Part shown: piece after piece, positions 4,639-42,764 of the stretch
Layout: each line of letters starts with the position of its first letter
How positions within the stretch are numbered: position 1 is the stretch's first letter
Origin: a virus
Direction: 5' to 3' (one strand)
IMG/VR virus record: IMGVR_UViG_3300045988_113246
Length of the DNA: 48,367 nucleotides
Program-made: the position numbers and the translations under genes
The notes under the pieces: model-generated
The model's input: only the letters and a program-made list of their open reading frames with translations
Told to the model about the DNA's origin: nothing
Database searches by the model: none

Positions 4639-6702
4639 ATGAGCAAACAAGTAAAAATTAGGCGTTTGACCCTTTGCAACTTCAAGGGCTTACGCAACGT
4701 AACGGTAGAGTTCAGCGAGAACACGACTACCATCAGCGGACGCAACGGCACGGGTAAAACCACCATTAAGGACGCTTTCAGTTGGCTCCTGTGGGGCAAA
4801 GACAGTGAGGGCAACACCGATAGCAAGTTTGGCATCAAGACCAACGATGCTAACGGCAACTTCATTCCCGACCTCGAACACGAAGTAAGCGGCACGTTTG
4901 ATGTAATAGACACCGAAACGGGCGCGGTTGATACCGTGGAGTTCCGCCGCGTATTGGTTGAGGAATGGAAAGTACCCAACGGCGAAACGGAGCGCGTACT
5001 GAAAGGACACCATACCGACTACTTCAGTAACGGCGTACCATTGAAAACAAAGGCAGAGTACGACAAGCGTATTAACGACATCATCCCCGAAGCCGTGTTT
5101 AAGGTAATAACAGACCCTTACTATTTTCTTACCCTTCATTGGAAGGCACAGCGCGAAATGCTCTTACAGATAGCCGGGAACGTGAGCGAAGCCGACGTAG
5201 CGAAAGATAACGCCGAGTTTGCCGCCCTTCTTGCAAGAGTGACGGGCAAGACGCTGGAGGACTACAAGCGCGAAGTAGCGGTACAGAAAAGCAAGATAAG
5301 CGACAGGCTGGAGAAGATACCCACAGCCATAGACGCAATAACGCGAGTAACGCCGACAGCACCCGACTACGCAGCTTTGGAAGCCGACAAAACACGTTTG
5401 GAAGGCGAGCTTTCAGAGATTGACACGGCGGCATCGTCGGCAGCTGAAGCCAACCGCATAGCCTACGAGAACGCGGCAAAGATACAGCAGCAAATCAACG
5501 AGCGCAAAACCGCCCAGCAAAAAGTATTCTTTGAAGCCAAGGAAGCAGCGCGTAACCAAGCCTACAAGACGAACGAAGCCTACAATAACGCTGCCCGTGA
5601 TATGCAGACATTGGACGCGCAAGCAAGAAGCGTAGAAACCGCTTATTCCAGCGACAAGGCAAGAATACAGACACGCATCCAGCAAGTACAGCGTTACACG
5701 GACGAAACCAAGAGCCAGCAGGACGCATTACGCGAAAGTTGGTACAAGGTGAACGCCGAAGAGTTCAGCGGAGAAGCAGAAAGCCTCGTTTGCCCTTTGT
5801 TCAACATCTGTTGCAAGGACGAGGAAGCGAAGGCGGCTTACAATGAGAACCGCGAAGCCGCAAGGGTAAAGTTTGGCGAGGATAAAGAAAAACGCCTTAA
5901 CACCATCAACGAGAAAGGCAAGGGACTAACGACACAGATAGAGCAGCAGGAAGCCGAGATAAGCCGACTTAACGGCGAGCTTGCAACGTTGGAAGCGAAG
6001 CACAGCACGGAAACAACAGACATAGCCAACCGCCGCGCCCTTCTTAACAAGACACTTGCAGAAAGCCCAAGAGTAAGCACAGAGCCGGACATCAAACCCG
6101 AAACGCTGCCCGAGTGGGTAAAGCTACAAGGCGAGATTACAAGCCTTACCGCGCAACTTCCAACCGCCGACACTACCAACGCAAGCAACACGGCAGAGCT
6201 ACGCCAGCGCAAGGAGAGTATAACCGCGCAGCTTAAAGGCGTGGAACGTTTGCTCGGAGTACGCACGACCATAGAAACCAACAACGCGGAGGTAGCGAAA
6301 CTTCGCGAGGAAGCCGCAAAGTTGGCGCAGGAGAAAGCCGACCTTCAGAACGAAGAAACGCTTATAGACGAGTTCACGACGGCAAGAATGAACGAGGTAG
6401 AACGCCGCGTAAACGCTTTGTTTAGCCGTGTTCAGTTCAAGATGTACCGCACACAGATAGAGGACGCGAAGCAAGTACCCGACTGCGTTTGCTACATAGA
6501 CGGTGTAAGGTACGCCGACAAGAACACAGCAGGGAAGGTAAACGCAGGGCTGGACGTGATTAACACCCTTTGCGCCTTCCACGGAGTAAGCGCACCGATA
6601 TTCATAGACAAAGCCGAGAGCGTGAACGAGTTTATCCCGGTAAACAGCCAGCTTGTAAAGTTGGTAGTTTCGACAGAAGATTTTACAGTAACAAACAGAT
6701 AA
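4639..6702 (+). CDS. SbcC/Rad50-like AAA ATPase (recombination module)
   Basis: 687 aa. N-terminal Walker A GRNGTGKTT, long central coiled coil, C-terminal IFIDKAESV (Walker B / D-loop-like). Confidence 0.75.
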   Translation: MSKQVKIRRLTLCNFKGLRNVTVEFSENTTTISGRNGTGKTTIKDAFSWLLWGKDSEGNTDSKFGIKTNDANGNFIPDLEHEVSGTFDVIDTETGAVDTVEFRRVLVEEWKVPNGETERVLKGHHTDYFSNGVPLKTKAEYDKRINDIIPEAVFKVITDPYYFLTLHWKAQREMLLQIAGNVSEADVAKDNAEFAALLARVTGKTLEDYKREVAVQKSKISDRLEKIPTAIDAITRVTPTAPDYAALEADKTRLEGELSEIDTAASSAAEANRIAYENAAKIQQQINERKTAQQKVFFEAKEAARNQAYKTNEAYNNAARDMQTLDAQARSVETAYSSDKARIQTRIQQVQRYTDETKSQQDALRESWYKVNAEEFSGEAESLVCPLFNICCKDEEAKAAYNENREAARVKFGEDKEKRLNTINEKGKGLTTQIEQQEAEISRLNGELATLEAKHSTETTDIANRRALLNKTLAESPRVSTEPDIKPETLPEWVKLQGEITSLTAQLPTADTTNASNTAELRQRKESITAQLKGVERLLGVRTTIETNNAEVAKLREEAAKLAQEKADLQNEETLIDEFTTARMNEVERRVNALFSRVQFKMYRTQIEDAKQVPDCVCYIDGVRYADKNTAGKVNAGLDVINTLCAFHGVSAPIFIDKAESVNEFIPVNSQLVKLVVSTEDFTVTNR

Positions 6703-8297: not shown

Positions 8298-8696
8298 ATG
8301 ATAAAAGGATTTGACCAACAGACGCAGCCACTAAGCGAGTACGAAGAAAACGTACTGCTGCCCGTCATATTGCAAGGACTAAAGACCAAGCAAGGCAAGA
8401 AGAACGCAGTAACCAACCGAACGATAGTAATGCGGTTGAGTGTTGCAGGGTACAAGATAGACGAAGCGCGATGCCGTAAGCTAATAAACCATATTCGCAC
8501 AACGGATATTTTACCCGGACTAATAGCCACGTCGGGCGGCTACTTCTTAGCGGAGAACGAAGCGGAACTATTGGACTACGAAGAAAGCCTATTAGGACGC
8601 GAAAACGCCATTAAGGAAGTACGTTTAGCCATAGCAAGACAAAGACGCATCCTCTTTGAGGACGCGCACAAGCCCAAAGAAGGCAGCATTTTCTAA
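8298..8696 (+). CDS. Hypothetical protein
   Basis: 132-aa ORF tightly packed in the early operon. Confidence 0.45.
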   Translation: MIKGFDQQTQPLSEYEENVLLPVILQGLKTKQGKKNAVTNRTIVMRLSVAGYKIDEARCRKLINHIRTTDILPGLIATSGGYFLAENEAELLDYEESLLGRENAIKEVRLAIARQRRILFEDAHKPKEGSIF

Positions 8697-10186: not shown

Positions 10187-11008
10187 ATGAGCCAAGATAG
10201 TATAGTAATGTTCCGCAACATAATAGAAGCGTTAGCCGTATTACCTGCCGAAACGTATAAGAAAGTTTCGCAAATGGTTTACGCATACGCTTTCGACGGA
10301 GAAGAGCCAGCAGACGAAGCCGACCCTATTGTACTTGCTCTTTTCCTTTCCTTCAAACCGCAAATAGACTTCAACGTAAAGAGATACGAAAGCTATGTAG
10401 AACGCGGAAAGAAAGGCGGCGCACCAAAAGGAAACAGCAACGCCAAAAAAGGAAAAGATAGCGAAGAAAAACAACCTAAAACAACTAAAAACAAGGTAAA
10501 ACAAGTTGGAACAAGCAAAGACAACTTAGAACAACTTGAAGAAGATACGGAACAAAGCGAAACAAGCAAAAACGACCTTATATCTATATCAATATCAGAT
10601 AATAATACTGTTGTTGATAACGCGCACACGCGCGAGAGCGAGGACGGAGCGCAGGAAGAAGAAAGCGAAGCGGGAGATTACGAAGCCTTCTTAAACGAGT
10701 TCTTCAAGGAAACCAACCGTTCAAACATTGAGGTTATTTGCATGCAGCTACACACAACGCCCGAAGCACTACGCAAGGAAGCTGAAGAAGTTGTAGCCGA
10801 GTGGCGGCTGACCAAAGCGCGACACCAAGATTACAGCGACACGGCTCGGCACTTAGTGAACCAATTACGGGTAAGGTATAACGTAAAACAGAAAGAAGAT
10901 GGCAGAAAACAAAAGCAGCCAGCAACAGGCACAGCAACCGCAAAGGATAGATTTAACGGCGTTTGCGAAACTCCTACGAAGAAAAAGCACCTACGCAGCA
11001 CGATTTAA
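10187..11008 (+). CDS. Replisome organizer / replication initiator-like protein
   Basis: 273 aa. Conserved N-terminal domain, then a low-complexity K/N/E linker encoded by 10-bp-phased iterons. It lies immediately upstream of a DnaC-like loader. The 3' end overlaps the next ORF, so the exact end is uncertain. Confidence 0.6.
   Translation: MSQDSIVMFRNIIEALAVLPAETYKKVSQMVYAYAFDGEEPADEADPIVLALFLSFKPQIDFNVKRYESYVERGKKGGAPKGNSNAKKGKDSEEKQPKTTKNKVKQVGTSKDNLEQLEEDTEQSETSKNDLISISISDNNTVVDNAHTRESEDGAQEEESEAGDYEAFLNEFFKETNRSNIEVICMQLHTTPEALRKEAEEVVAEWRLTKARHQDYSDTARHLVNQLRVRYNVKQKEDGRKQKQPATGTATAKDRFNGVCETPTKKKHLRSTI
10468..10650. repeat. Origin-like module inside the organizer gene: iterons, AT-rich block, GC-rich block
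   Basis: About ten 10-bp-phased units of the type ACAAnnTAAA, then ACCTTATATCTATATC, then GTTGTTG, then CGCGCACACGCGCGAGAGCGAGG. Confidence 0.6.
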
Positions 11009-11636
11009 GGTAGACAAGTACACGGAGGACATACCGAACATGCTATACGAGTGCTACCGCTACCAAGTGGAGAAGCGCGGACACGTTCTAAAGAGGGACG
11101 AAGCCACGATAGACCACATCAGACGCGCTGCCCGTTGGCTGTTGGGAGCAAGCCCGAAGCCGGGGTTATTCCTTTACGGAGAGCCGGGAAACGGAAAGAC
11201 CACGTTAGCCAAGGCAATAGCGCAGCTTATAGGGCTTTTGTACGATAGCCCATACATGAACGAGCGCAAGGGTGTAGTAGTTATTCCTGCTTCATCACTA
11301 ACAGAAGCGGCAAGGGGCGAGAAGCAAGACCTTCTAAACCGCATGAAAACTACCGAACTGCTCTACATTGACGACGTAGGTATAGAGCCAGCAAGCCTAA
11401 AAGTTTGGGGTAACGAGGTTAGCCCGTTGGTTGATTTGCTTTACTACCGCTACGACAACCAGCTGTTCACGATAATAACCTCCAACTTGATAGGCGACGA
11501 GGATATAGAAAAGCGATACGGCGCACGGATAGCCGACAGGTTTATAGAAATGTTCGACTTGATAGGCTTTGAAAACAAGAGCTACCGCCCAAGGCTTGAA
11601 ACTTTGCCGACAATACCAGCAGAACCAAACGACTGA
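10899..11636 (+). CDS. DnaC/IstB-like AAA+ helicase loader
   Basis: Walker A GEPGNGKTT and Walker B LLYIDDVG. The alternative start at 11040 (MLYECY) would remove the 110-nt overlap with the upstream gene. Confidence 0.75.
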   Translation: MAENKSSQQQAQQPQRIDLTAFAKLLRRKSTYAARFKVDKYTEDIPNMLYECYRYQVEKRGHVLKRDEATIDHIRRAARWLLGASPKPGLFLYGEPGNGKTTLAKAIAQLIGLLYDSPYMNERKGVVVIPASSLTEAARGEKQDLLNRMKTTELLYIDDVGIEPASLKVWGNEVSPLVDLLYYRYDNQLFTIITSNLIGDEDIEKRYGARIADRFIEMFDLIGFENKSYRPRLETLPTIPAEPND

Positions 11637-15077: not shown

Positions 15078-15100
15078 GGCGAAGTGTTGGCGAAGTGTTT
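15078..15100 (+). promoter_or_regulatory. Tandem 11-mer GGCGAAGTGTT x2 (copy 1 of 3)
   Basis: The exact 23-mer GGCGAAGTGTTGGCGAAGTGTTT is also present at 26962..26984. It lies 37 nt upstream of a TAnnTTTG box. Confidence 0.55.
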
Positions 15101-15162: not shown

Positions 15163-15471
15163 ATGAGTATTCAGACATTCAAAGAGAAGGTAAAGGGCTT
15201 TATAAGCCGCATACCGACAGACAAAAAAAAGCACTTCGCGGCAGGCTTCGCGATTTGCGCCATAGTAAGCATCCTTTGTGGCTACCTTATTGGCTTTGCA
15301 GTAGCCGCCATAGCAGCCGCAGGAAAGGAAGCACGCGACTACATAACCAAGAAGGGAACTCCCGAATTTGCCGATTTCGTTTACACGATAGTGGGCGCGG
15401 TAGCCTTCATCTTGTTTTCGGTAGTCCTTTCTTTGTTGGTGCAAGCCTTCATAATGTTGGTTTACTTTTAA
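15163..15471 (+). CDS. Membrane protein with 3 predicted TM helices (holin candidate)
   Basis: 102 aa with three hydrophobic helices. It has its own promoter and terminator. Preferred over the overlapping alternative-frame ORF 15084..15503. Confidence 0.55.
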   Translation: MSIQTFKEKVKGFISRIPTDKKKHFAAGFAICAIVSILCGYLIGFAVAAIAAAGKEARDYITKKGTPEFADFVYTIVGAVAFILFSVVLSLLVQAFIMLVYF

Positions 15472-15576: not shown

Positions 15577-16323
15577 ATGGCACGAAAGAAAAGAATACAG
15601 GCAGACAAAAGCGACCTTCACGTTAGCGATTTCGGGAATATTGAAATACCCGATTTGGATTTGTCGCTGTTCGACGTGTTGAACGATGGCTACGACGAGG
15701 AAACACGCTATACCAAGCCGAAAGTTTACGACTTGAAAAGCGATTACGTTCTATACGATAACGCGGTAAAGTTGGCGCAAGAACTACGCTTAGGTTTTGG
15801 AGAACGCGCCGACGTGTTTGTTAGCGGTAACTTCATATTCGGCGATTTCATAGAAGCGTATATAGTTGACAATAACGCCAAGTGCAGGAAGATGACTATA
15901 AGCACGCTATCACTAAGTCAGAATAACGTAGATAGCCTTTACAACCTTCTTGCAAACGGATATATAGACGAATTGAACCTCGTAGTAAGCGTTTACTTTT
16001 GGGGCAACGAGATAAGAAGCCTTATCCCCTACATATACCGTAAACTTGATTTCGGCAATAAGTTCCAGCTTTCAGTAGCATCAGTTCACACCAAAACCGC
16101 GCAGTTTGAAACGCTCGGAGGGCGTAAGGTAGTCATTCACGGAAGCGCGAACTTACGCAGTAGCGGCAATATAGAGCAGTTCACAATAGAGGAGAACCCC
16201 GAATTATACGACTTCTACGACGAACATTTTAGCCGGATCGTGGAGAAGTACGCAACAATAAGGAAGCCAATACGCGGCAATTCCTTATGGAGTGAGTTAG
16301 TAAAGAAAAGGTTTAACGATTAA
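15577..16323 (+). CDS. PLD/Nuc-like (HKD-type) domain protein
   Basis: 248 aa. VHTKTAQFE...IHGSANL approximates the HxK(x)4D...GSxN motif, with E in place of D. Confidence 0.4.
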   Translation: MARKKRIQADKSDLHVSDFGNIEIPDLDLSLFDVLNDGYDEETRYTKPKVYDLKSDYVLYDNAVKLAQELRLGFGERADVFVSGNFIFGDFIEAYIVDNNAKCRKMTISTLSLSQNNVDSLYNLLANGYIDELNLVVSVYFWGNEIRSLIPYIYRKLDFGNKFQLSVASVHTKTAQFETLGGRKVVIHGSANLRSSGNIEQFTIEENPELYDFYDEHFSRIVEKYATIRKPIRGNSLWSELVKKRFND

Positions 16324-17955: not shown

Positions 17956-18396
17956 ATGGCAGCTAAAGATATTGAGCAATACCAATTCAAGCCCGGACAG
18001 AGCGGCAACCCGAAAGGGCGACCGAAGAACCGCGTACCCGACAACCTCGTTAAGATATTCGGCAGCAAGGCGAAGGCAAAGAAATTCTATTGCTTGACAG
18101 CAGCCGAGATTAACGAATGGGAAGCGGTAATACTTACGCTTTCCGCAGAGGATTTGAAGGTATTAGCCAAGTGGAGCGACGCGCCAGCATACCCCAAGGG
18201 GCTGGCGATAGCCGTACTTTCAGACATGAAGAACGGCAAGACAACAACGTTAGACAAACTGCGCGAACGTCAGCACGGCAAGCCGACACAGCGCATGGAG
18301 ATAACGGGCAAGGACGGCGCGGACTTCATGCCAGCGCGGACACTTACCAAGGAGGAAGCAAAGGAATTGTTAGAGAACCTACAAAAGGAATACTAA
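17956..18396 (+). CDS. terS: Terminase small subunit (DUF5681-like)
   Basis: Start taken at MAAKDIEQ. The KPGQSGNPKGRPKN motif is typical of this TerS family. It lies directly upstream of TerL. Confidence 0.6.
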   Translation: MAAKDIEQYQFKPGQSGNPKGRPKNRVPDNLVKIFGSKAKAKKFYCLTAAEINEWEAVILTLSAEDLKVLAKWSDAPAYPKGLAIAVLSDMKNGKTTTLDKLRERQHGKPTQRMEITGKDGADFMPARTLTKEEAKELLENLQKEY

Positions 18397-21471: not shown

Positions 21472-23763
21472 ATGCAAAATCCAAAGAAAATAACTATGCC
21501 GGACAACGTAAGAAACCAGCTTATAATACAACTTCGCGGCTTTGACGCACGCCACTACGCCAATACCGAGCGGTACGCCCGGCAGATAGACCGCGTTTAT
21601 AAGACAGCATGCGACGAATACGCACGATTGGGCGCGAGTTTGGACGCACCCGAAGGTGAAGCCGTGTTTTCCTTCGACAAGTACCCACGCGCACGGAAGC
21701 AAGCGCAGGGCATCATGCAACGGCTCGCAAAGAAGGTGGAAAGCGTTATTACTTCCGGGACGCAAAGCGAGTGGCTGGCGGCGACATACAAGAACGACGC
21801 ATTTTTAGGCTCTATTCTTCGCACTTCCAAGCTAACGAAAGAGGAGTTAGAGCAATACCAAGGCAGGAACTTAGAAGCCCTTAACACCTTCCAACGGCGC
21901 AAGGTTGAGGGCATGGGACTAAGCGAGCGCGTATGGAAACAAGCCGAGGACATGAAAGCCGCCATAGAATTAGGTATAGACGTAGCCATCGGCGACGGAA
22001 GGGACGCGCAGCAGTTAAGCCGCGATTTGCGCAGCTACCTCCAAGAACCTAAACGCCTTTACCGCCGTGTTCGCGACAAGGGCGGCGTATTGAGGTTAAG
22101 CAAAGCAGCCAAAATGTACCATCCGGGGCAAGGCGTTTACAGGAGTTCAGCCAAAAACGCGCAGCGATTGGCACGGACAGAAATAAACATGGCTTACCGC
22201 GAAAGCGAGTTTTTGAGGTGGCAGAAGTTGGACTTTGTTGTAGGTTTGCGCATTTGTTTAAGCAACAACCACACGATAATGAACAGCAAGGGCGAACCCG
22301 TGCCTTTGGTGGATATTTGCGACGAGTTATGGGGCGATTACCCTAAAACGTTCAAGTTTGTAGGCTGGCATCCTCAATGCCGTTGCTACGTTGTACCTAT
22401 ATTGTCAGACTACGACGAGTACAACCAAGACCGCGCAAACCGCTTAAAGGCTATTGTACGCGGCACAGCCTACAAAAGTCTGCCTTCACGTCGTTCTGTG
22501 GTGGACGTTCCGCGCAAGTTCCGGGAATACATAGACAGCATATTAGAACGTTCCAAAGGTTGGAAGTCGCAACCTTACTACATTCGCGACAACTTTGTAG
22601 GCGGCAAGATTGAAGGAGGGCTTAACCCAGTTATTCCAACAAAGACGATGAACACCGTACAGCCCTGCACGGAGTTTGACGGACGTATAGCCATGCTTAA
22701 ACGTTGGGCTTACGCTTTCGGATTAGACCTTTCAAACGTGGATAGCCTACGCACGGCAGGAAACCGAGCCGCGCTATTGGCAGAGTTGGAACGGCTGGAC
22801 GAGATAAGCATGAAGCGGCAGGACGCATGGATAGAAGCGTATAACGAACTTTCCAACTTTGCCAAGACGCAAGCCAACGGCAACAAGGAAATTACCGACA
22901 TTTGCGACAAGGAGCTGCGCGACAACGCCGTTACAACTTCGCATTATTACGGAGATTGCACAAGCAAGCTAAAAGCGGCGTTTAGTGCAGTGGTGGCAAA
23001 ACTTGCCAAGATTAAGGCAGAGGAAGCAAAAATAGAGTATTCCAAGAATATGCCCGAAGCACTACAAAAAGGCAAAGAGTATTTAGAAGGCGAAGATTAC
23101 ATTTTTAGAAAAGATTTCTTCGACCTTCTTAAAGAAAAACCAACGCTTAAAATACACCATACGGGTAAAGGCAGTTACGAAGCAGATAAGGGGAAAACTG
23201 TTGTACTTGATAGCGGAAACCGTATTAAGGCTTCAAGTTGGTATAAGAAAAGCGTAGTTTACCATGAGTTCGGACATGCCATCGCAGACCAGCGCAACCT
23301 ACTTTATACGGATAGTGTGCAAGAACTTCGCAAAAAACAGATAGACAGACTACGCAAACGTACAACAATTAAGACAAAAGAAAAGGTGTTGAATACCAAA
23401 ACATGGGAGTACGAGGAAAAAGAAGTTACCAAACACGTCATGAAGGCTAAGATTATTTCGGATAGGTTAGATAGACTTTACTCCAAGATAAGAAGCATGA
23501 AGCCCGAAACATTCACGAAACGGGGTATAACGCAGGATGATGTAATAGAGCAAATCTGCGCAGTACAAGACACGCTTAAAAGCCTTATAAATTCTGTTGG
23601 CTGGGGACATAGTACCAAATACTTTAACATTCCCGGTCATTCAGAACACGAATACTTAGCACATTGTTTTGAAAACACCTTTGCAGAAAACCGCATATTC
23701 CAAAAGTATTTACCAACGGAATATGCGGAAATGATAGGCTTAATAAAGTCGTTGAAATTCTAA
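21472..23763 (+). CDS. MuF/SPP1 gp7-like head morphogenesis protein with a C-terminal HEFGH metalloprotease-like extension
   Basis: 763 aa. The MuF core ends in GWHPQCRCYVVPI. The roughly 430-aa extension contains HEFGH (23263..23277) and a downstream EHEYLAHCFE. Together these resemble the anthrax lethal factor (ATLF) type zinc site. Confidence 0.7.
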   Translation: MQNPKKITMPDNVRNQLIIQLRGFDARHYANTERYARQIDRVYKTACDEYARLGASLDAPEGEAVFSFDKYPRARKQAQGIMQRLAKKVESVITSGTQSEWLAATYKNDAFLGSILRTSKLTKEELEQYQGRNLEALNTFQRRKVEGMGLSERVWKQAEDMKAAIELGIDVAIGDGRDAQQLSRDLRSYLQEPKRLYRRVRDKGGVLRLSKAAKMYHPGQGVYRSSAKNAQRLARTEINMAYRESEFLRWQKLDFVVGLRICLSNNHTIMNSKGEPVPLVDICDELWGDYPKTFKFVGWHPQCRCYVVPILSDYDEYNQDRANRLKAIVRGTAYKSLPSRRSVVDVPRKFREYIDSILERSKGWKSQPYYIRDNFVGGKIEGGLNPVIPTKTMNTVQPCTEFDGRIAMLKRWAYAFGLDLSNVDSLRTAGNRAALLAELERLDEISMKRQDAWIEAYNELSNFAKTQANGNKEITDICDKELRDNAVTTSHYYGDCTSKLKAAFSAVVAKLAKIKAEEAKIEYSKNMPEALQKGKEYLEGEDYIFRKDFFDLLKEKPTLKIHHTGKGSYEADKGKTVVLDSGNRIKASSWYKKSVVYHEFGHAIADQRNLLYTDSVQELRKKQIDRLRKRTTIKTKEKVLNTKTWEYEEKEVTKHVMKAKIISDRLDRLYSKIRSMKPETFTKRGITQDDVIEQICAVQDTLKSLINSVGWGHSTKYFNIPGHSEHEYLAHCFENTFAENRIFQKYLPTEYAEMIGLIKSLKF

Positions 23764-24608: not shown

Positions 24609-24940
24609 ATGAACAGGAAAATTATAGCATATAAGGACTACTTCAACACCTTCTTTGCCGAACTTGACAAAGGAACGCAAGACAAGGTATTATACGTTCT
24701 GATGCTGCTACGCACACAAGACCGCCTACCAACCAAGTTTATAAAGGCGATACGCGACGGGCTTTTGAAGTACGGATAGAGTACAACAGCAATATCTACC
24801 GCATATTCTTTGTATTTGACGGTAACAAGATTGTAGTATTATTTAACGGCTTCCAAAAGAAAACCCAAAAGACACCAACTAACGAGATTAAGAAGGCATT
24901 AAAACTAAAAGAAGAATATTATGCAAGCAAAAGAGATTAA
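24609..24940 (+). pseudogene. HigB/Gp49-like (RelE superfamily) toxin gene interrupted by a frameshift
   Basis: Frame A gives MNRKIIAYKDYFNTFFAELDKGTQDKVLYVLMLLRTQDRLPTKFIKAIRDGLLKYG then a stop at 24777. Another frame continues EYNSNIYRIFFVFDGNKIVVLFNGFQKKTQKTPTNEIKKALKLKEEYYASKRD. Adding one T to the T4 run at 24763..24766 restores DGLFEVRIEYNS. Confidence 0.7.
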
Positions 24941-25232
24941 AAAGGATATTTACGACATCGACGCTTTGATAGATGAACGCTTTGGCAAGGAAGGAACGCC
25001 GGAGCGAGCCGAAGCGGAAGAACGCGCCTATACCTTCTATACGGGCGCGATAATTGAGGACGCACGGAAGAAAGCCAAGATTAGCAAGGCTGAATTAGCG
25101 CGGAGGTTAGGCACAGACCGCGCCTATATAACACGCATCGAAAGCGGACAGATAGAACCGAAAGTTTCTACCTTCTACCGCATCGCCGCCGCCCTCGGTT
25201 GTACCGTTGGACTTATTACGCCGATTGGCTGA
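24921..25232 (+). CDS. HigA-like XRE-family antitoxin
   Basis: 103 aa with the HTH ISKAELARRLGTDRAYITRIESGQ. It overlaps the toxin 3' end by 20 nt. Confidence 0.75.
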   Translation: MQAKEIKKDIYDIDALIDERFGKEGTPERAEAEERAYTFYTGAIIEDARKKAKISKAELARRLGTDRAYITRIESGQIEPKVSTFYRIAAALGCTVGLITPIG

Positions 25233-25337: not shown

Positions 25338-25808
25338 CTATTTCATTGGAACAACGTAAGTATAAACGACAAAAGAAGTATTATTACCACTTTTGCCTGT
25401 CATTACAAATACATTTTTGCCATACCAATTATAAGACCCATCAGAAAAATCACTATATTTCCCGTATTTTTTAATTAGAGCATTAACAAGGTCATCCGCA
25501 TTTCCATGGGGATAAGCGGCATATATATTTTTAATTCTGTGCTTTTCCGTTTGAACGTAAACAGAAATAGGAGCAACACCACCCAAACGAAATGTAGGCT
25601 CGTCCCGGTCTGCTTCACACTTAAACACTCCTCCGCCCTTTTCTTCCAATAAGTCAAGTTTTGTAAGATAATGGGTAACGTAATCGCCTAATACAATTCC
25701 CCCGAATTTAGGGTTAGCGTTAAGAACTTCGATACTTGCTACCTTCTTTTGTTGTGCCATACCGCAAATCGGGAGTAAGGCAAGGAGAAGAAAAAGTAAT
25801 TTTTTCAT
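25338..25808 (-). CDS. Secreted protein or lipoprotein (moron)
   Basis: 156 aa. N-terminal signal peptide MKKLLFLLLALLPICGMAQQ. Opposite strand to the structural genes. Confidence 0.65.
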   Translation of the reverse strand: MKKLLFLLLALLPICGMAQQKKVASIEVLNANPKFGGIVLGDYVTHYLTKLDLLEEKGGGVFKCEADRDEPTFRLGGVAPISVYVQTEKHRIKNIYAAYPHGNADDLVNALIKKYGKYSDFSDGSYNWYGKNVFVMTGKSGNNTSFVVYTYVVPMK

Positions 25809-26220
25809 CTGAATTTAGTAATTTTGCACCCACCGCCCGAAGCAAGCATTTCACTTAACCGCATAAAGAAGCGCGGACTATATAGGTTTACGTATTTGAG
25901 GCATCGCCAAACGCCTAACGAAAATAAACCGTATAGCCGCGCTTTGCCGTTATATTCAAGTATGGATATACGACTCCGCGCGTAAGGTTCATTTTTCGTT
26001 ATTTGTGAAATTTGGCGATTTTCAAATACAAAAAACCTAACGCTTCCTTATATCGTCCGGATTTCTCCCCGAACAACGCCACAAAATTACAAAATAATTT
26101 GCAGAACGCAAGCGGAAAACAGACACAGAGCAAAGAAAAAGCGTAAAAACCAAGATTTTAGCCCGAAAAGTTATGCTTCCATATTCATTTATATAGATAA
26201 GCGGACATAAACGGAATATA

Positions 26221-26380
26221 ACCGACACATAACCTAAGACAAACAAGAGACAACCAACACACAACCTAAAACAACCTACATACAACATAATTCAACCTAA
26301 AACAAGCTAAAACAAGCTACGGACAACATAAAACAAGGTAGCGCAATTTTTAGCGGTTAGGTTGTTTTTAGTTGTTTCTA
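26221..26380. repeat. CA-rich iteron array with an inverted arm
   Basis: Units such as CAACCTAAAA and CAAGCTAAAA at about 10-bp spacing, followed by the inverted copy ggttaggttgtttttagttgtttcta. No credible ORF. Confidence 0.55.
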
Positions 26381-26500
26381 ATTTTGCCTTCATTTGAAGC
26401 CGATAAAGGGCGATTTTTCAGAGTTGGCAGAAAACGCGATTAGCAAGGCTTTATATAGTTGTTTTGCAAAATCAGTCGTAACGTATTGATACAGAGCAAT

Positions 26501-26643
26501 AAAACAACTACAAGCTAAAACAACTTGAAACAAGCTAAAACAAGCTAAAACAACCTTATATCTATATCTATTATCTATATCTATTATATTGTTGTTGTTG
26601 TCGTTGAAACGCGCACGCGCGTACACGCGAGAGCGAGGGAGCG
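26501..26643. repeat. Non-coding duplicate of the origin-like module at 10468..10650
   Basis: Same order of elements. Shares the exact 16-mer ACCTTATATCTATATC (26553..26568 = 10575..10590) and the 13-mer CGCGAGAGCGAGG (26626..26638 = 10631..10643). Confidence 0.65.
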
Positions 26644-26961
26644 AAAAGCATTTTTTGAGAAGGGCAAAAGCATAAACAGCAAGAACAAACCATTTTCGCG
26701 CCTTCACGAAAATGGCAGAAGCAGGAGCAGCAGACAGAACGCGGCAGCTTGCAAGCCTGTAGAGAGAGTAAAAACGAACTTCCACAGAAAGAGCAACACC
26801 AACCATAATACGACAAAAGCCGTACAACGCCATAGCAAGCCCTTACACGGCGTTTTTGTATTCAAGCCTATAGAGAGAACACCGAAAGAAAAATAATGCC
26901 TTAAAACGCAGAAAAAACGGCTTAACCGAAAAAGCAACTTTAAGGGGTATTTTTGCAAAGT

Positions 26962-26984
26962 GGCGAAGTGTTGGCGAAGTGTTT
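26962..26984 (+). promoter_or_regulatory. Tandem 11-mer GGCGAAGTGTT x2 (copy 2 of 3)
   Basis: Exact 23-mer identical to 15078..15100, 36 nt upstream of the -7 box of the head operon. Confidence 0.55.
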
Positions 26985-27020
26985 GCCGAAAACTTTACTA
27001 ATCGTATCGCCTTAATACGC

Positions 27021-27028
27021 TACCTTTG
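27021..27028 (+). promoter_or_regulatory. Candidate -7 box TACCTTTG (head/tail operon)
   Basis: Matches TAnnTTTG, 28 nt upstream of the scaffold gene ATG. Confidence 0.5.
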
Positions 27029-27055
27029 CAAAGAAAAATTAGTTTTCAATAGTTT

Positions 27056-27781
27056 ATGAACGAATTACAAGAAAAGATTTTAGCACTACTTGTGGCTAAG
27101 TTCCAAGGCGTGCGTAAAGACGGTTTGCAGCAGTTGGCAGCCGCTATCGGTTTACAGGTTGCAAGCGAAGAAGAAGCTAACCAAGTCGTAGATAAACTTA
27201 CCGCCGACAAGGTGAGCGGATTTGTAACGGAATGGCGGAGGACAGCCGACGCGGAGATTAAGAAGGCTAACGACACCTACGAAGAAGGACTTAGACGTAA
27301 GTACGACTTCAAGGAGAAGAACACGCCCGACCCCAATCCTGCGCCCGACCCCAACAAGCCAGCAGACGGCGGAGCGGTGACGCTGGACGCGATAAGCAAA
27401 CTTATTGACAGCAAGCTGAAGGGCGTGCAAGACAGCATTACCACGCTTAACGCCGATAAGGTGGCTACTTCGCGACGTGAACTATTTGTAGCCAAGTTGA
27501 ACGAAGCCAAGGTAGACGGGCGGCAGCGTGAAATGATGTTGCGCAACTTCGACCGCGCTAACACCACGTTTGCCAACGATGACGATTTCAACAGCTACAT
27601 GACAGAAGCGCAAGGCGACATCGCAGCTTTGCAGCAGGAACGCGCCGACAGCGGACTGCAAGGACACGAAAAGCCCATCTTTGGAGCCGTGAACAAAGAC
27701 GGGATTAGTAGCGGCGTAGCAGACTACATCAAGGAGCGTGCAGAGAGTAACAACAAGACCCTAACGGGCAAAGATGTCTAA
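27056..27781 (+). CDS. Head scaffolding protein
   Basis: 241 aa, helical and charged. It lies upstream of the decoration and major capsid genes. Confidence 0.6.
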   Translation: MNELQEKILALLVAKFQGVRKDGLQQLAAAIGLQVASEEEANQVVDKLTADKVSGFVTEWRRTADAEIKKANDTYEEGLRRKYDFKEKNTPDPNPAPDPNKPADGGAVTLDAISKLIDSKLKGVQDSITTLNADKVATSRRELFVAKLNEAKVDGRQREMMLRNFDRANTTFANDDDFNSYMTEAQGDIAALQQERADSGLQGHEKPIFGAVNKDGISSGVADYIKERAESNNKTLTGKDV

Positions 27782-42710: not shown

Positions 42711-42744
42711 TTTGTACGCGAAAATTCACGGCTTCGCGTACAAA
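42711..42744 (+). terminator. Hairpin after the tail operon (terminator or operator)
   Basis: 12-bp stem tttgtacgcgaa / ttcgcgtacaaa with a 10-nt loop. No U-tract. It overlaps the first bases of the inverted 11-mer element. Confidence 0.4.
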
Positions 42745-42764
42745 CACTTCGCCAACATTTCGCA
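42741..42764 (-). promoter_or_regulatory. Tandem 11-mer element, inverted (copy 3 of 3)
   Basis: The reverse complement reads GCGAAATGTT-GGCGAAGTGTT-TG. The 17-nt core TGTTGGCGAAGTGTTTG is identical to 26969..26985. It lies 27 nt upstream of the -7 box of the DGR operon. Confidence 0.5.

Follow-up and report, generated by a model that had tools for sequence, protein, structure and literature searches.

Here we describe a 48,367-nucleotide stretch of viral DNA (IMG/VR record IMGVR_UViG_3300045988_113246, hereafter the window), a prophage of about 48 kb and 48% GC in which an origin-like module inside a putative replisome organizer gene is found again in a gap between genes. Our comparisons indicate that the second copy, at positions 26221–26643 with a core at 26501–26643, is probably a functional accessory origin module, non-coding and bound by the organizer. 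Three lines of evidence carry this interpretation: the repeats of the gap copy follow the repeat type of the organizer gene in three specificity classes, its core is conserved above the surrounding non-coding DNA, and it lies where phage SPP1 carries a second origin. Positions 8400–29857 of the window are identical to part of a 137-kb gut-metagenome scaffold in ENA.

An origin-like module is present in two copies

In both loci, on the same strand, 10-bp iterons are followed by an AT-rich box, then by a GTTG run and finally by a GC block. The first locus (10468–10650) lies in a DUF6291 gene, upstream of the gene for a DnaC-like helicase loader, and the second (26501–26643) lies in a 1,247-bp gap that is free of open reading frames (ORFs; 25809–27055). 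A first-pass annotation of the window, made from its letters alone, had described about ten A-rich iterons, an AT box, GTTGTTG and a GC block in the organizer gene, and had stated that the same elements recur in the same order at 26501–26643, with an exact 16-mer and an exact 13-mer in common. We found the elements of the organizer gene where it had placed them. A 9-mer dot-plot of 10400–10700 against 26150–26700, the comparison that the annotation had proposed, confirmed the common order: it gave a collinear diagonal at an offset of about 15978–15995, which passed through ACCTTATATCTATATC, AACGCGCAC and CGCGAGAGCGAGG, and a lattice of iteron matches was visible in the same plot. The 16-mer ACCTTATATCTATATC (10575–10590 and 26553–26568) and the 13-mer CGCGAGAGCGAGG (10631–10643 and 26626–26638) are exact, with coordinates that correspond one to one.

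The similarity of the two loci exceeds what would be expected from base composition. Within the window, the exact 14-mer CTTATATCTATATC and the 13-mer are confined to these two places. The iteron motif AAAACAASYT has nine matches in 48 kb where 1.18 are expected, all nine fall inside the two loci, and none of 100 shuffles reached that number. Local alignment of the centre of the in-gene module with the gap scored 29.5, whereas shuffled sequences averaged 10.9 and never exceeded 17. Tandem Repeats Finder (TRF) identified period-10 arrays at 10468–10537 (7 copies), 26261–26336 (7.4 copies) and 26510–26553 (4.4 copies). Cumulative GC skew was uninformative: it tracked the single coding strand monotonically and did not bend at the first or the second locus.

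The in-gene module is composed of three parts on the plus strand. Its iteron array (10468–10575) contains about ten AAAACAASYT-like 10-bp repeats and is 57% A and 33% GC. The AT-rich box (10575–10617; 22% GC), a candidate DNA unwinding element, holds ACCTTATATCTATATC and, at 10611–10617, GTTGTTG. The GC block ACGCGCACACGCGCGAGAGCGAGG (10618–10650; 66% GC) runs from ACGCGCAC to CGCGAGAGCGAGG and encodes an invariant DNAHxRE motif at the start of the C-terminal domain of the protein. DnaA boxes were also considered and set aside: only scattered matches with one mismatch were found, one of which overlaps GTTGTTGATAA in the gene copy and has no counterpart in the gap.

The core of the gap copy reproduces this anatomy, also on the plus strand. 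Five direct 10-bp iterons (array 2, 26501–26556) adjoin an AT-rich box (26553–26601) that is again a candidate unwinding element and consists of the 16-mer, 2.2 copies of TATCTATATCTAT and then TTGTTGTTGTTG, with 21% GC and 55% T; the GC block AACGCGCACGCGCGTACACGCGAGAGCGAGG (26608–26643; 67% GC) contains the 13-mer. Upstream of this core, as the annotation had noted, are a further array and an inverted arm, and both are real. Array 1 (26221–26340, plus strand) has about 8–11 direct iteron-like repeats of the ACAACCTAAA type, detected by TRF with a period of 10/21 at 26250–26336, and its 5′ edge (26197–26245) grades into degenerate ATAACC/ATAAGC repeats. The inverted arm (26357–26383, minus strand) comprises two inverted iterons recognised by motif matches and repeat pairing. 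A single inverted iteron, TAGTTGTTTT (26456–26465, minus strand), lies in a fast-evolving spacer and is 100% complementary to 26501–26510.

The gap itself does not appear to encode a protein. Its ORFs had no Pfam match and none is preserved among relatives, a 147-aa minus-strand ORF being specific to the window; these two results rule out a coding explanation and agree with the earlier description of a 1.25-kb stretch with no credible ORF. A scan of the gap for sigma-70-type promoters and terminators remained at shuffle level, with a hairpin at 26689–26716 as its sole find.

The putative organizer gene carries the first copy in its linker

The gene that contains the first copy (10187–11008, plus strand) encodes a putative replication initiator, or replisome organizer, of 273 aa in which a disordered linker separates an N-terminal DUF6291 domain from a helical domain at the C terminus. 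The Pfam match to DUF6291 spans aa 5–81 (E = 9e-13), and all PHROG matches are to families of unknown function. An AlphaFold2 (AF2) model built from 28 homologues has confident helical domains at aa 1–74 and 160–240, joined by a disordered linker (aa 75–160) with predicted local distance difference test (pLDDT) scores below 50. On this domain model, the iteron, AT and GC module (aa 95–155) falls exactly in the part of the gene that encodes the linker.

A gene for a DnaC-like helicase loader of the AAA+ class (10899–11636, plus strand; phrog_50, E = 7e-34) is followed by genes for SSB and a VRR-NUC nuclease; in close relatives the called start of the loader gene is later, just past the organizer stop. 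The in-gene module was present in every DUF6291 organizer that we examined, and is presumably the obligatory origin. The first-pass annotation had called this gene a replisome organizer. Its context makes a good case for an initiator or organizer role, but the label itself has no database annotation behind it, Pfam giving only DUF6291.

The gap copy matches the iteron type of the organizer gene in three classes

To compare the two copies across phages, we used 21-kb loci centred on TerL, from IMG/VR and a large assembly collection, that hold both the organizer and the gap. The window and its relatives down to 59% organizer identity have iterons of one type (type A). L061-type loci, with an organizer identity of 34%, have GAAAACAACCG iterons together with inverted CGGTTG, and for more than 110 bp their gap copy hardly differs from the in-gene module (about 97–100% identity over roughly 130–180 bp). 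The organizer of L064 (identity 44%) has GAACYAAC iterons, and its gap contains the same iterons and a matching AT box. Scoring gene modules against gaps produced a block-diagonal matrix, with scores of 28–52 within type A, 120–137 within the L061 type and 84 for L064; cross-type scores (9–22) were at shuffle level. In three specificity classes, therefore, the iterons of the gap copy are of the same type as those in the gene. Consistent with this, in the window, L061 and L064 the 7-mers enriched in the in-gene array had a second hot spot nowhere but in the gap. This test was not clean elsewhere: the matches of L047 also fell elsewhere in the organizer gene, L056 and L055 had no gap hot spot though the module is present, and L088, L089 and L084 had weak hot spots outside the gap.

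The iterons also change together with the part of the organizer that would read them. L084, which has GATAACC-type iterons, and L055, whose iterons are of the AAAACAAG type, have organizers with 43% identity in the N-domain and 100% in the C-domain. The corresponding values are 46% and 90% for L089 and L056, and 42% and 93% for P0019 and the window. The organizer N-domain and the iterons thus swap together as a cassette on near-identical C-domains. These comparisons offer a functional hypothesis for DUF6291, as an iteron-specific initiator with swappable specificity cassettes, and suggest that the gap module would be recognised by the same initiator as the in-gene origin. The annotation had proposed that the conserved entity is a DNA element tied to the organizer, and this was supported by the type match in three classes, by a core conserved above its flanks and by the lack of a conserved protein.

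This behaviour is familiar from lambdoid phages (lambda, phi80 and P22 gene 18), in which the origin lies in the O initiator gene, with its iterons and AT-rich region in the stretch that codes for the interdomain linker. The N-terminal domain of O binds the iterons, the C-terminal domain recruits the helicase loader, and the N-domain and iterons are exchanged as a specificity cassette. The organizer of the window resembles O in its origin-encoding linker and in the mosaics described above, with N-domains at 42–46% and C-domains at 90–100% identity and iteron types that differ accordingly. Lambdoid phages differ in having a single origin, without a second non-coding copy, and no Pfam or PHROG match placed the organizer with lambda O or Phage_rep_O, the matches being DUF6291 and PHROGs of unknown function.

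Repeats of a second type also occur near some gap arrays. L047, which has a type-A organizer, contains five AT[AT]ACC repeats resembling those of the GATAACC type (type B) at 18149–18250, directly upstream of its type-A gap array, and this cluster is the sole one in 21 kb. At 26197–26245 the window has only degenerate remnants of type-B-like repeats (ATAAGCGGA, ATAAACGGA, ATAACCGA and ATAACCTAAG). A strict test for type-B (GATAACC-like) iterons gave two matches and no cluster in the gap of the window; with repeats this weak, we do not claim a dual-specificity array there.

The core is conserved and its position resembles that of SPP1 oriR

We computed segment conservation among 12 close relatives, in window coordinates. 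The core (26525–26644) was 96–99.6% conserved, the arrays and the downstream flank 87–93%, and the spacer (26405–26484) 69–77%. The conserved core corresponds to array 2, the AT box and the GC block, and, being better conserved than its flanks, looks selected.

The annotation had cited lambdoid phages alone as precedent and missed a direct one, the oriL and oriR of SPP1 (PMC6316719, PMC3485210). SPP1 has oriL inside gene 38 and a non-coding oriR, both of which are bound by gp38 with nanomolar affinity (PMC6316719, PMC3485210, PMC5737612). The gp38 sites in oriL and oriR are direct repeats adjoining an AT-rich unwinding element (PMC6316719, PMC5737612). Together with three moron genes, oriR lies in a segment that interrupts the order of head-assembly genes, and it has been proposed that gp38 at oriR stalls the fork and triggers the switch from theta to sigma replication (PMC6316719, PMC3485210, PMC5737612).

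As a control, we applied the same shared-word analysis to SPP1. Gene 38 and the oriR region share only words of 11–17 nt, and the two copies in the window likewise share only short words (13–16 nt). The oriR words of SPP1 lie at 4876–4935, after gene 7 (minor head protein) and before gene 8 and the morons that precede scaffold gene 11. The order in the window is TerL (18400), a portal of the SPP1 family (19875; PF05133), a gp7-like gene (21472–23763), morons, the gap, the gene at 27056 and the major capsid gene (28394); from its position, the 27056 gene would encode the scaffold. Among the morons of the window are a HigB/HigA-like pair and, on the minus strand, a gene for a secreted protein.

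The two phages thus have in common an origin module in the organizer gene with a second non-coding copy of the same organisation and orientation, a location of that copy in a moron segment between a gp7-type minor head gene and the scaffold and capsid genes, a helicase loader gene after the organizer gene, and portals of one family. The copies are 12–13 kb apart in SPP1 and 16 kb apart in the window. There are also clear differences. The organizer of the window is a DUF6291 protein, not DnaD-like, and has no detectable homology to the SPP1 organizer G38P; with an hhalign probability of 0.1% and a Pfam match to DUF6291 only, the resemblance is architectural and does not reflect a common protein family. 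The window phage encodes no replicative helicase of its own, and it is a temperate phage of Bacteroidales, whereas SPP1 is a virulent phage of Bacillus. Its gap copy, known here from sequence, has extra arrays and inverted iterons and is optional among relatives.

The window would therefore represent an SPP1-like dual origin in Bacteroidales gut phages, built around a non-homologous DUF6291 initiator, although the two-origin design as such is already known. To our knowledge, SPP1 is the main worked example of an in-organizer origin with a second, non-coding copy, and the role given to its oriR remains a matter of models rather than demonstration. Finding the same layout in the same slot in abundant human-gut phages of Bacteroidales, with an unrelated organizer, argues that the design is selected and is not an oddity of SPP1.

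A model for the two copies

These comparisons suggest a model that runs from initiator binding and DNA unwinding to helicase loading and then to firing or a stalled fork. In it, the organizer would use its N-terminal DUF6291 domain to bind the 10-bp-phased A-rich iterons, and the resulting oligomer would distort the adjacent AT box, whose GC content is about 20%; this box, bordered by the GC block, could serve as the unwinding element. The C-terminal domain would then recruit the DnaC-like loader encoded by the neighbouring gene together with the host helicase. The gap copy could fire as a second origin, or tightly bound initiator on it could halt forks that started at the in-gene origin, as has been suggested for oriR in SPP1. 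Such a stall would aid a switch from theta to concatemer-forming replication. Near-identical phages with a long, a short, a mismatched or no gap copy make the second-origin function directly testable.

Evidence against an accessory origin and alternative explanations

Several observations weigh against an accessory origin. No mention of DUF6291 was found in the literature searched, the organizer had no relative in the PDB by sequence or, with the AF2 model, by fold, and homology to G38P is lacking as described above, so that the organizer role rests on context and covariation. The gap copy is missing in L084, L088 and L069 and is therefore dispensable. Close relatives carry either a long or a short form of the gap, even when their TerL is identical. 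The long form, found in the window, consists of array 1 (which is restricted to this form), the inverted arm, the spacer and array 2, and in the short form the two arrays are fused. Comparison of window positions 26300–26515 with L110, L112, L116 and L118 showed an indel of about 220–270 bp that fuses the arrays and removes the inverted iterons and the spacer; its occurrence among phages of identical TerL suggests that the iteron arrays are prone to recombination. L089 has GATAACC-type (type-B) iterons in its organizer gene and AAAACAAGCT-type (type-A) arrays in its gap, and so type matching is not universal, although a cassette of N-domain and iterons exchanged recently would leave just such a mismatch. 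Type matching could also reflect gene conversion between direct repeats and not selection, a doubt that arises from the near identity of the L061-type copies over roughly 130–180 bp. Finally, since the in-gene GC block encodes the invariant DNAHxRE motif, the GC block of the gap could be passive carry-over.

Taken together, such observations could describe a neutral duplicate or relic, a functionless by-product of recombination or gene conversion between the organizer gene and the moron slot, whose similarity is kept only by repeated conversion. This explanation would account for the absence of the copy from three relatives without visible consequence, for long and short forms that differ by recombination between arrays, for the mismatched copy of L089 and for the L061-type copies, whose near identity is expected from recent conversion. 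It is also in line with L165, in which the gap copy is joined directly to the sequence for the C-terminal half of the organizer. We nonetheless consider it unlikely. A type-matched copy with full anatomy sits in the same slot in three classes, with organizers 32–44% identical to that of the window, its core is conserved above the non-coding flanks, and SPP1 has the same arrangement in the same slot. Moreover, the gap copy has features of its own, namely a longer and purer AT box, extra arrays and inverted iterons. The annotation had offered four options without preferring one: a second origin, a relic of a replaced replication module, an initiator-titrating or incompatibility element, or a transcribed RNA. 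For the window, the matching iteron types speak against a relic, but L089, whose organizer is type B and whose gap copy is type A, does resemble one.

The arrangement in L165 (IMGVR_UViG_3300029046_000100) merits separate description. On the reverse complement, at 1713–2534, a conserved element that precedes the gap copy (described below) and the gap copy itself run into the C-terminal half of the organizer, and the sequence continues to the loader and then to TerL. The two origin copies are joined via a repeat of about 180 bp that they share. This junction may be genuine, the product of recombination that gave a 16-kb circle or a duplication, or it may be a chimera made by the assembly across the repeat.

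A second alternative is that the extra arrays titrate or handcuff the initiator, sequestering or pairing it as incA does and thereby controlling the in-gene origin, or capture the organizer of a co-resident relative for exclusion or hitch-hiking. The auxiliary arrays P1 incA and F incC lie outside the minimal origin, lack an unwinding element and control plasmid copy number, and in its anatomy array 1 with its inverted arm (26221–26383) fits this description, having neither a counterpart in the gene nor an AT box of its own. Non-coding origins of lactococcal and streptococcal phages, made of iterons and an AT-rich region, bind and can titrate replication factors, and when cloned they confer phage-encoded resistance (Per); these are the primary origin of the phage placed on a multicopy plasmid, whereas the window has a second chromosomal copy beside its in-gene origin. 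Heterologous arrays exist as well, including the type-A arrays of L089 in a type-B phage, the five-repeat type-B-like cluster beside the type-A array of L047 and the degenerate remnants in the window at 26197–26245. Control sites that bind the initiator outside a minimal origin are also found in Vibrio chromosome II (PMC3401445). However, the conserved core retains a complete origin anatomy beyond binding sites, and since it has a full AT box and GC block it misfits the description of an incA-like sink. A single-copy site in a prophage would titrate little, and the type-B-like repeats of the window itself are weak and unclustered. We regard a titrating, handcuffing or inter-phage role as quite unlikely.

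Promoter boxes and a structured element flank the gap copy

The slot that holds the gap copy is bounded on its right by the promoter region of the downstream head operon (26962–27028, plus strand), which contains a tandem of GGCGAAGTGTT (26962–26983) and the TAnnTTTG box TACCTTTG (27021–27028). We take TAnnTTTG to be the Bacteroidetes-type promoter consensus. The 11-mer GGCGAAGTGTT has six matches in the window, compared with 0.97 expected. Tandem copies lie at 15078–15099 and 26962–26983, in each case some 65–75 bp before a start codon (ATG at 15163 and at 27056), and a single inverted copy lies at 42743–42753 (minus strand). Upstream of the 27056 homologue, the boxes are in the same place in all relatives. 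A late-gene regulator, one that delimits the transcription units flanking the moron and origin segment, probably binds at the 11-mer.

A further alternative is that the gap copy is a transcriptional site, where an organizer bound in front of the head-operon promoter, or in front of the divergent moron gene, would couple late expression to replication. Promoter-like signals do bracket the slot on both sides, and in relatives that lack the segment at 26650–26960 the module ends about 20–40 bp before the GGCGAAGTGTT-type boxes. In the window, however, the distance to the boxes is about 320 bp, L084, L088, L069 and L121 have the same promoter architecture without the module, and a pure operator role would leave the retention of the AT box and GC block unexplained. 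Such a site is improbable as the explanation of the module.

On the left of the slot, 5′ of the origin module and separate from the duplicate, lies a conserved structured element of about 270 nt (25827–26095), which is 99–100% conserved among the 12 close relatives. In IMG/VR we found it at 65 loci, in every case adjoining the start of a gene on the minus strand whose product begins MKK (25808 in the window), and it is retained in relatives that lack the origin module. Three helices are 98% paired and include five compensatory pairs, a result that none of 500 shuffles reached; two of the three are in a pseudoknot-like or mutually exclusive arrangement. In a wider alignment, the long-range helix GTATTTGAGGCATCGCCAA / TTGGCGATTTTCAAATAC shows pair exchanges of the types GC/AT, TA/AT and AT/GC. 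The evidence on its strand is divided, as RNAalifold favours the minus strand (-35.0 versus -21.6 kcal/mol) and three invariant G-U positions favour the plus strand. TAnnTTTG promoter-like boxes are present on both strands at the edges of the element. Searching the whole window with Rfam 15 at the gathering score gave no match, and a permissive search of 25700–27100 returned only chance-level matches (E of at least 0.88). The element could be the 5′ leader of the MKK gene, a plus-strand RNA directed towards the origin module or a structured single-strand DNA signal. Our analysis thus draws attention to non-coding DNA beside the origin slot that is conserved and structured and has no match among the Rfam families.

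Distant carriers of the element (L124 712–816, L129 3016–3120, L142 6440–6533 and similar loci) have another origin-like region in the same slot. This region consists of GC-rich CCAGCCCCT-type repeats, the AT-rich box GGATAAATATAAGGATAAAGATATATATAG and then three direct and three inverted CTACCAACATT repeats.

The gap module itself might belong, with the 25827–26095 element, to a non-coding RNA that is transcribed or to a structured signal for single-strand initiation. This notion draws on the covarying helices directly 5′ of the module, the promoter-like boxes at the element edges and the other origin-like region (CTACCAACATT repeats and AT-rich box) that follows the element in distant relatives, but it is very improbable, because the element is unchanged where the module is absent, and the two are therefore separable, while the module varies by array type and not by helix covariation and Rfam gave no match.

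A more speculative reading, and one that we put forward as a long shot, is that the slot between the structured element and the head-operon promoter is a site for hot-swappable origin cassettes, whose iteron content may affect interactions between related phages. This idea comes from the foreign-type arrays in the slot of L089 and L047 and from the different origin-like region of the distant relatives. Under such an arrangement, the organizer of a co-infecting relative may replicate the phage or prophage through its non-coding origin, or may be sequestered by it, as a form of origin piracy or incompatibility, and the adjacent covarying element may be a new RNA or single-strand DNA part of origin function.

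Other observations

Deposited phage genomes contained no match to the gap DNA and, by tblastn, one weak match to the organizer, and a scan of genome contigs for the organizer found no relatives. A tRNA search of the window found none. Loci L070 (1400–1500), L075 (760–880) and L079 (1250–1370) have a similar head module and a different initiator, with a DnaC-like loader next to it. These initiators have in-gene iterons of their own (AAAAGCAAAAC / ATAACAAAA) and an AT-rich box, and the loci have neither a gap copy nor the structured element.

Within the moron segment of the window, the gene for a Gp49/HigB-like toxin (24609–24930) has a frameshift near 24775, giving a 56-aa ORF whose continuation is in another frame. 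Relatives such as L112 have this gene intact, at 110 aa, and the adjacent HTH (HigA-like) gene of the window (24921–25232) is intact as well. The gp7-like minor head or head morphogenesis protein (21472–23763; 763 aa) has no Pfam match, and its aa 212–423 match a PHROG annotated as 'Bxa ADP-ribosyl transferase' (E = 2.6e-71).

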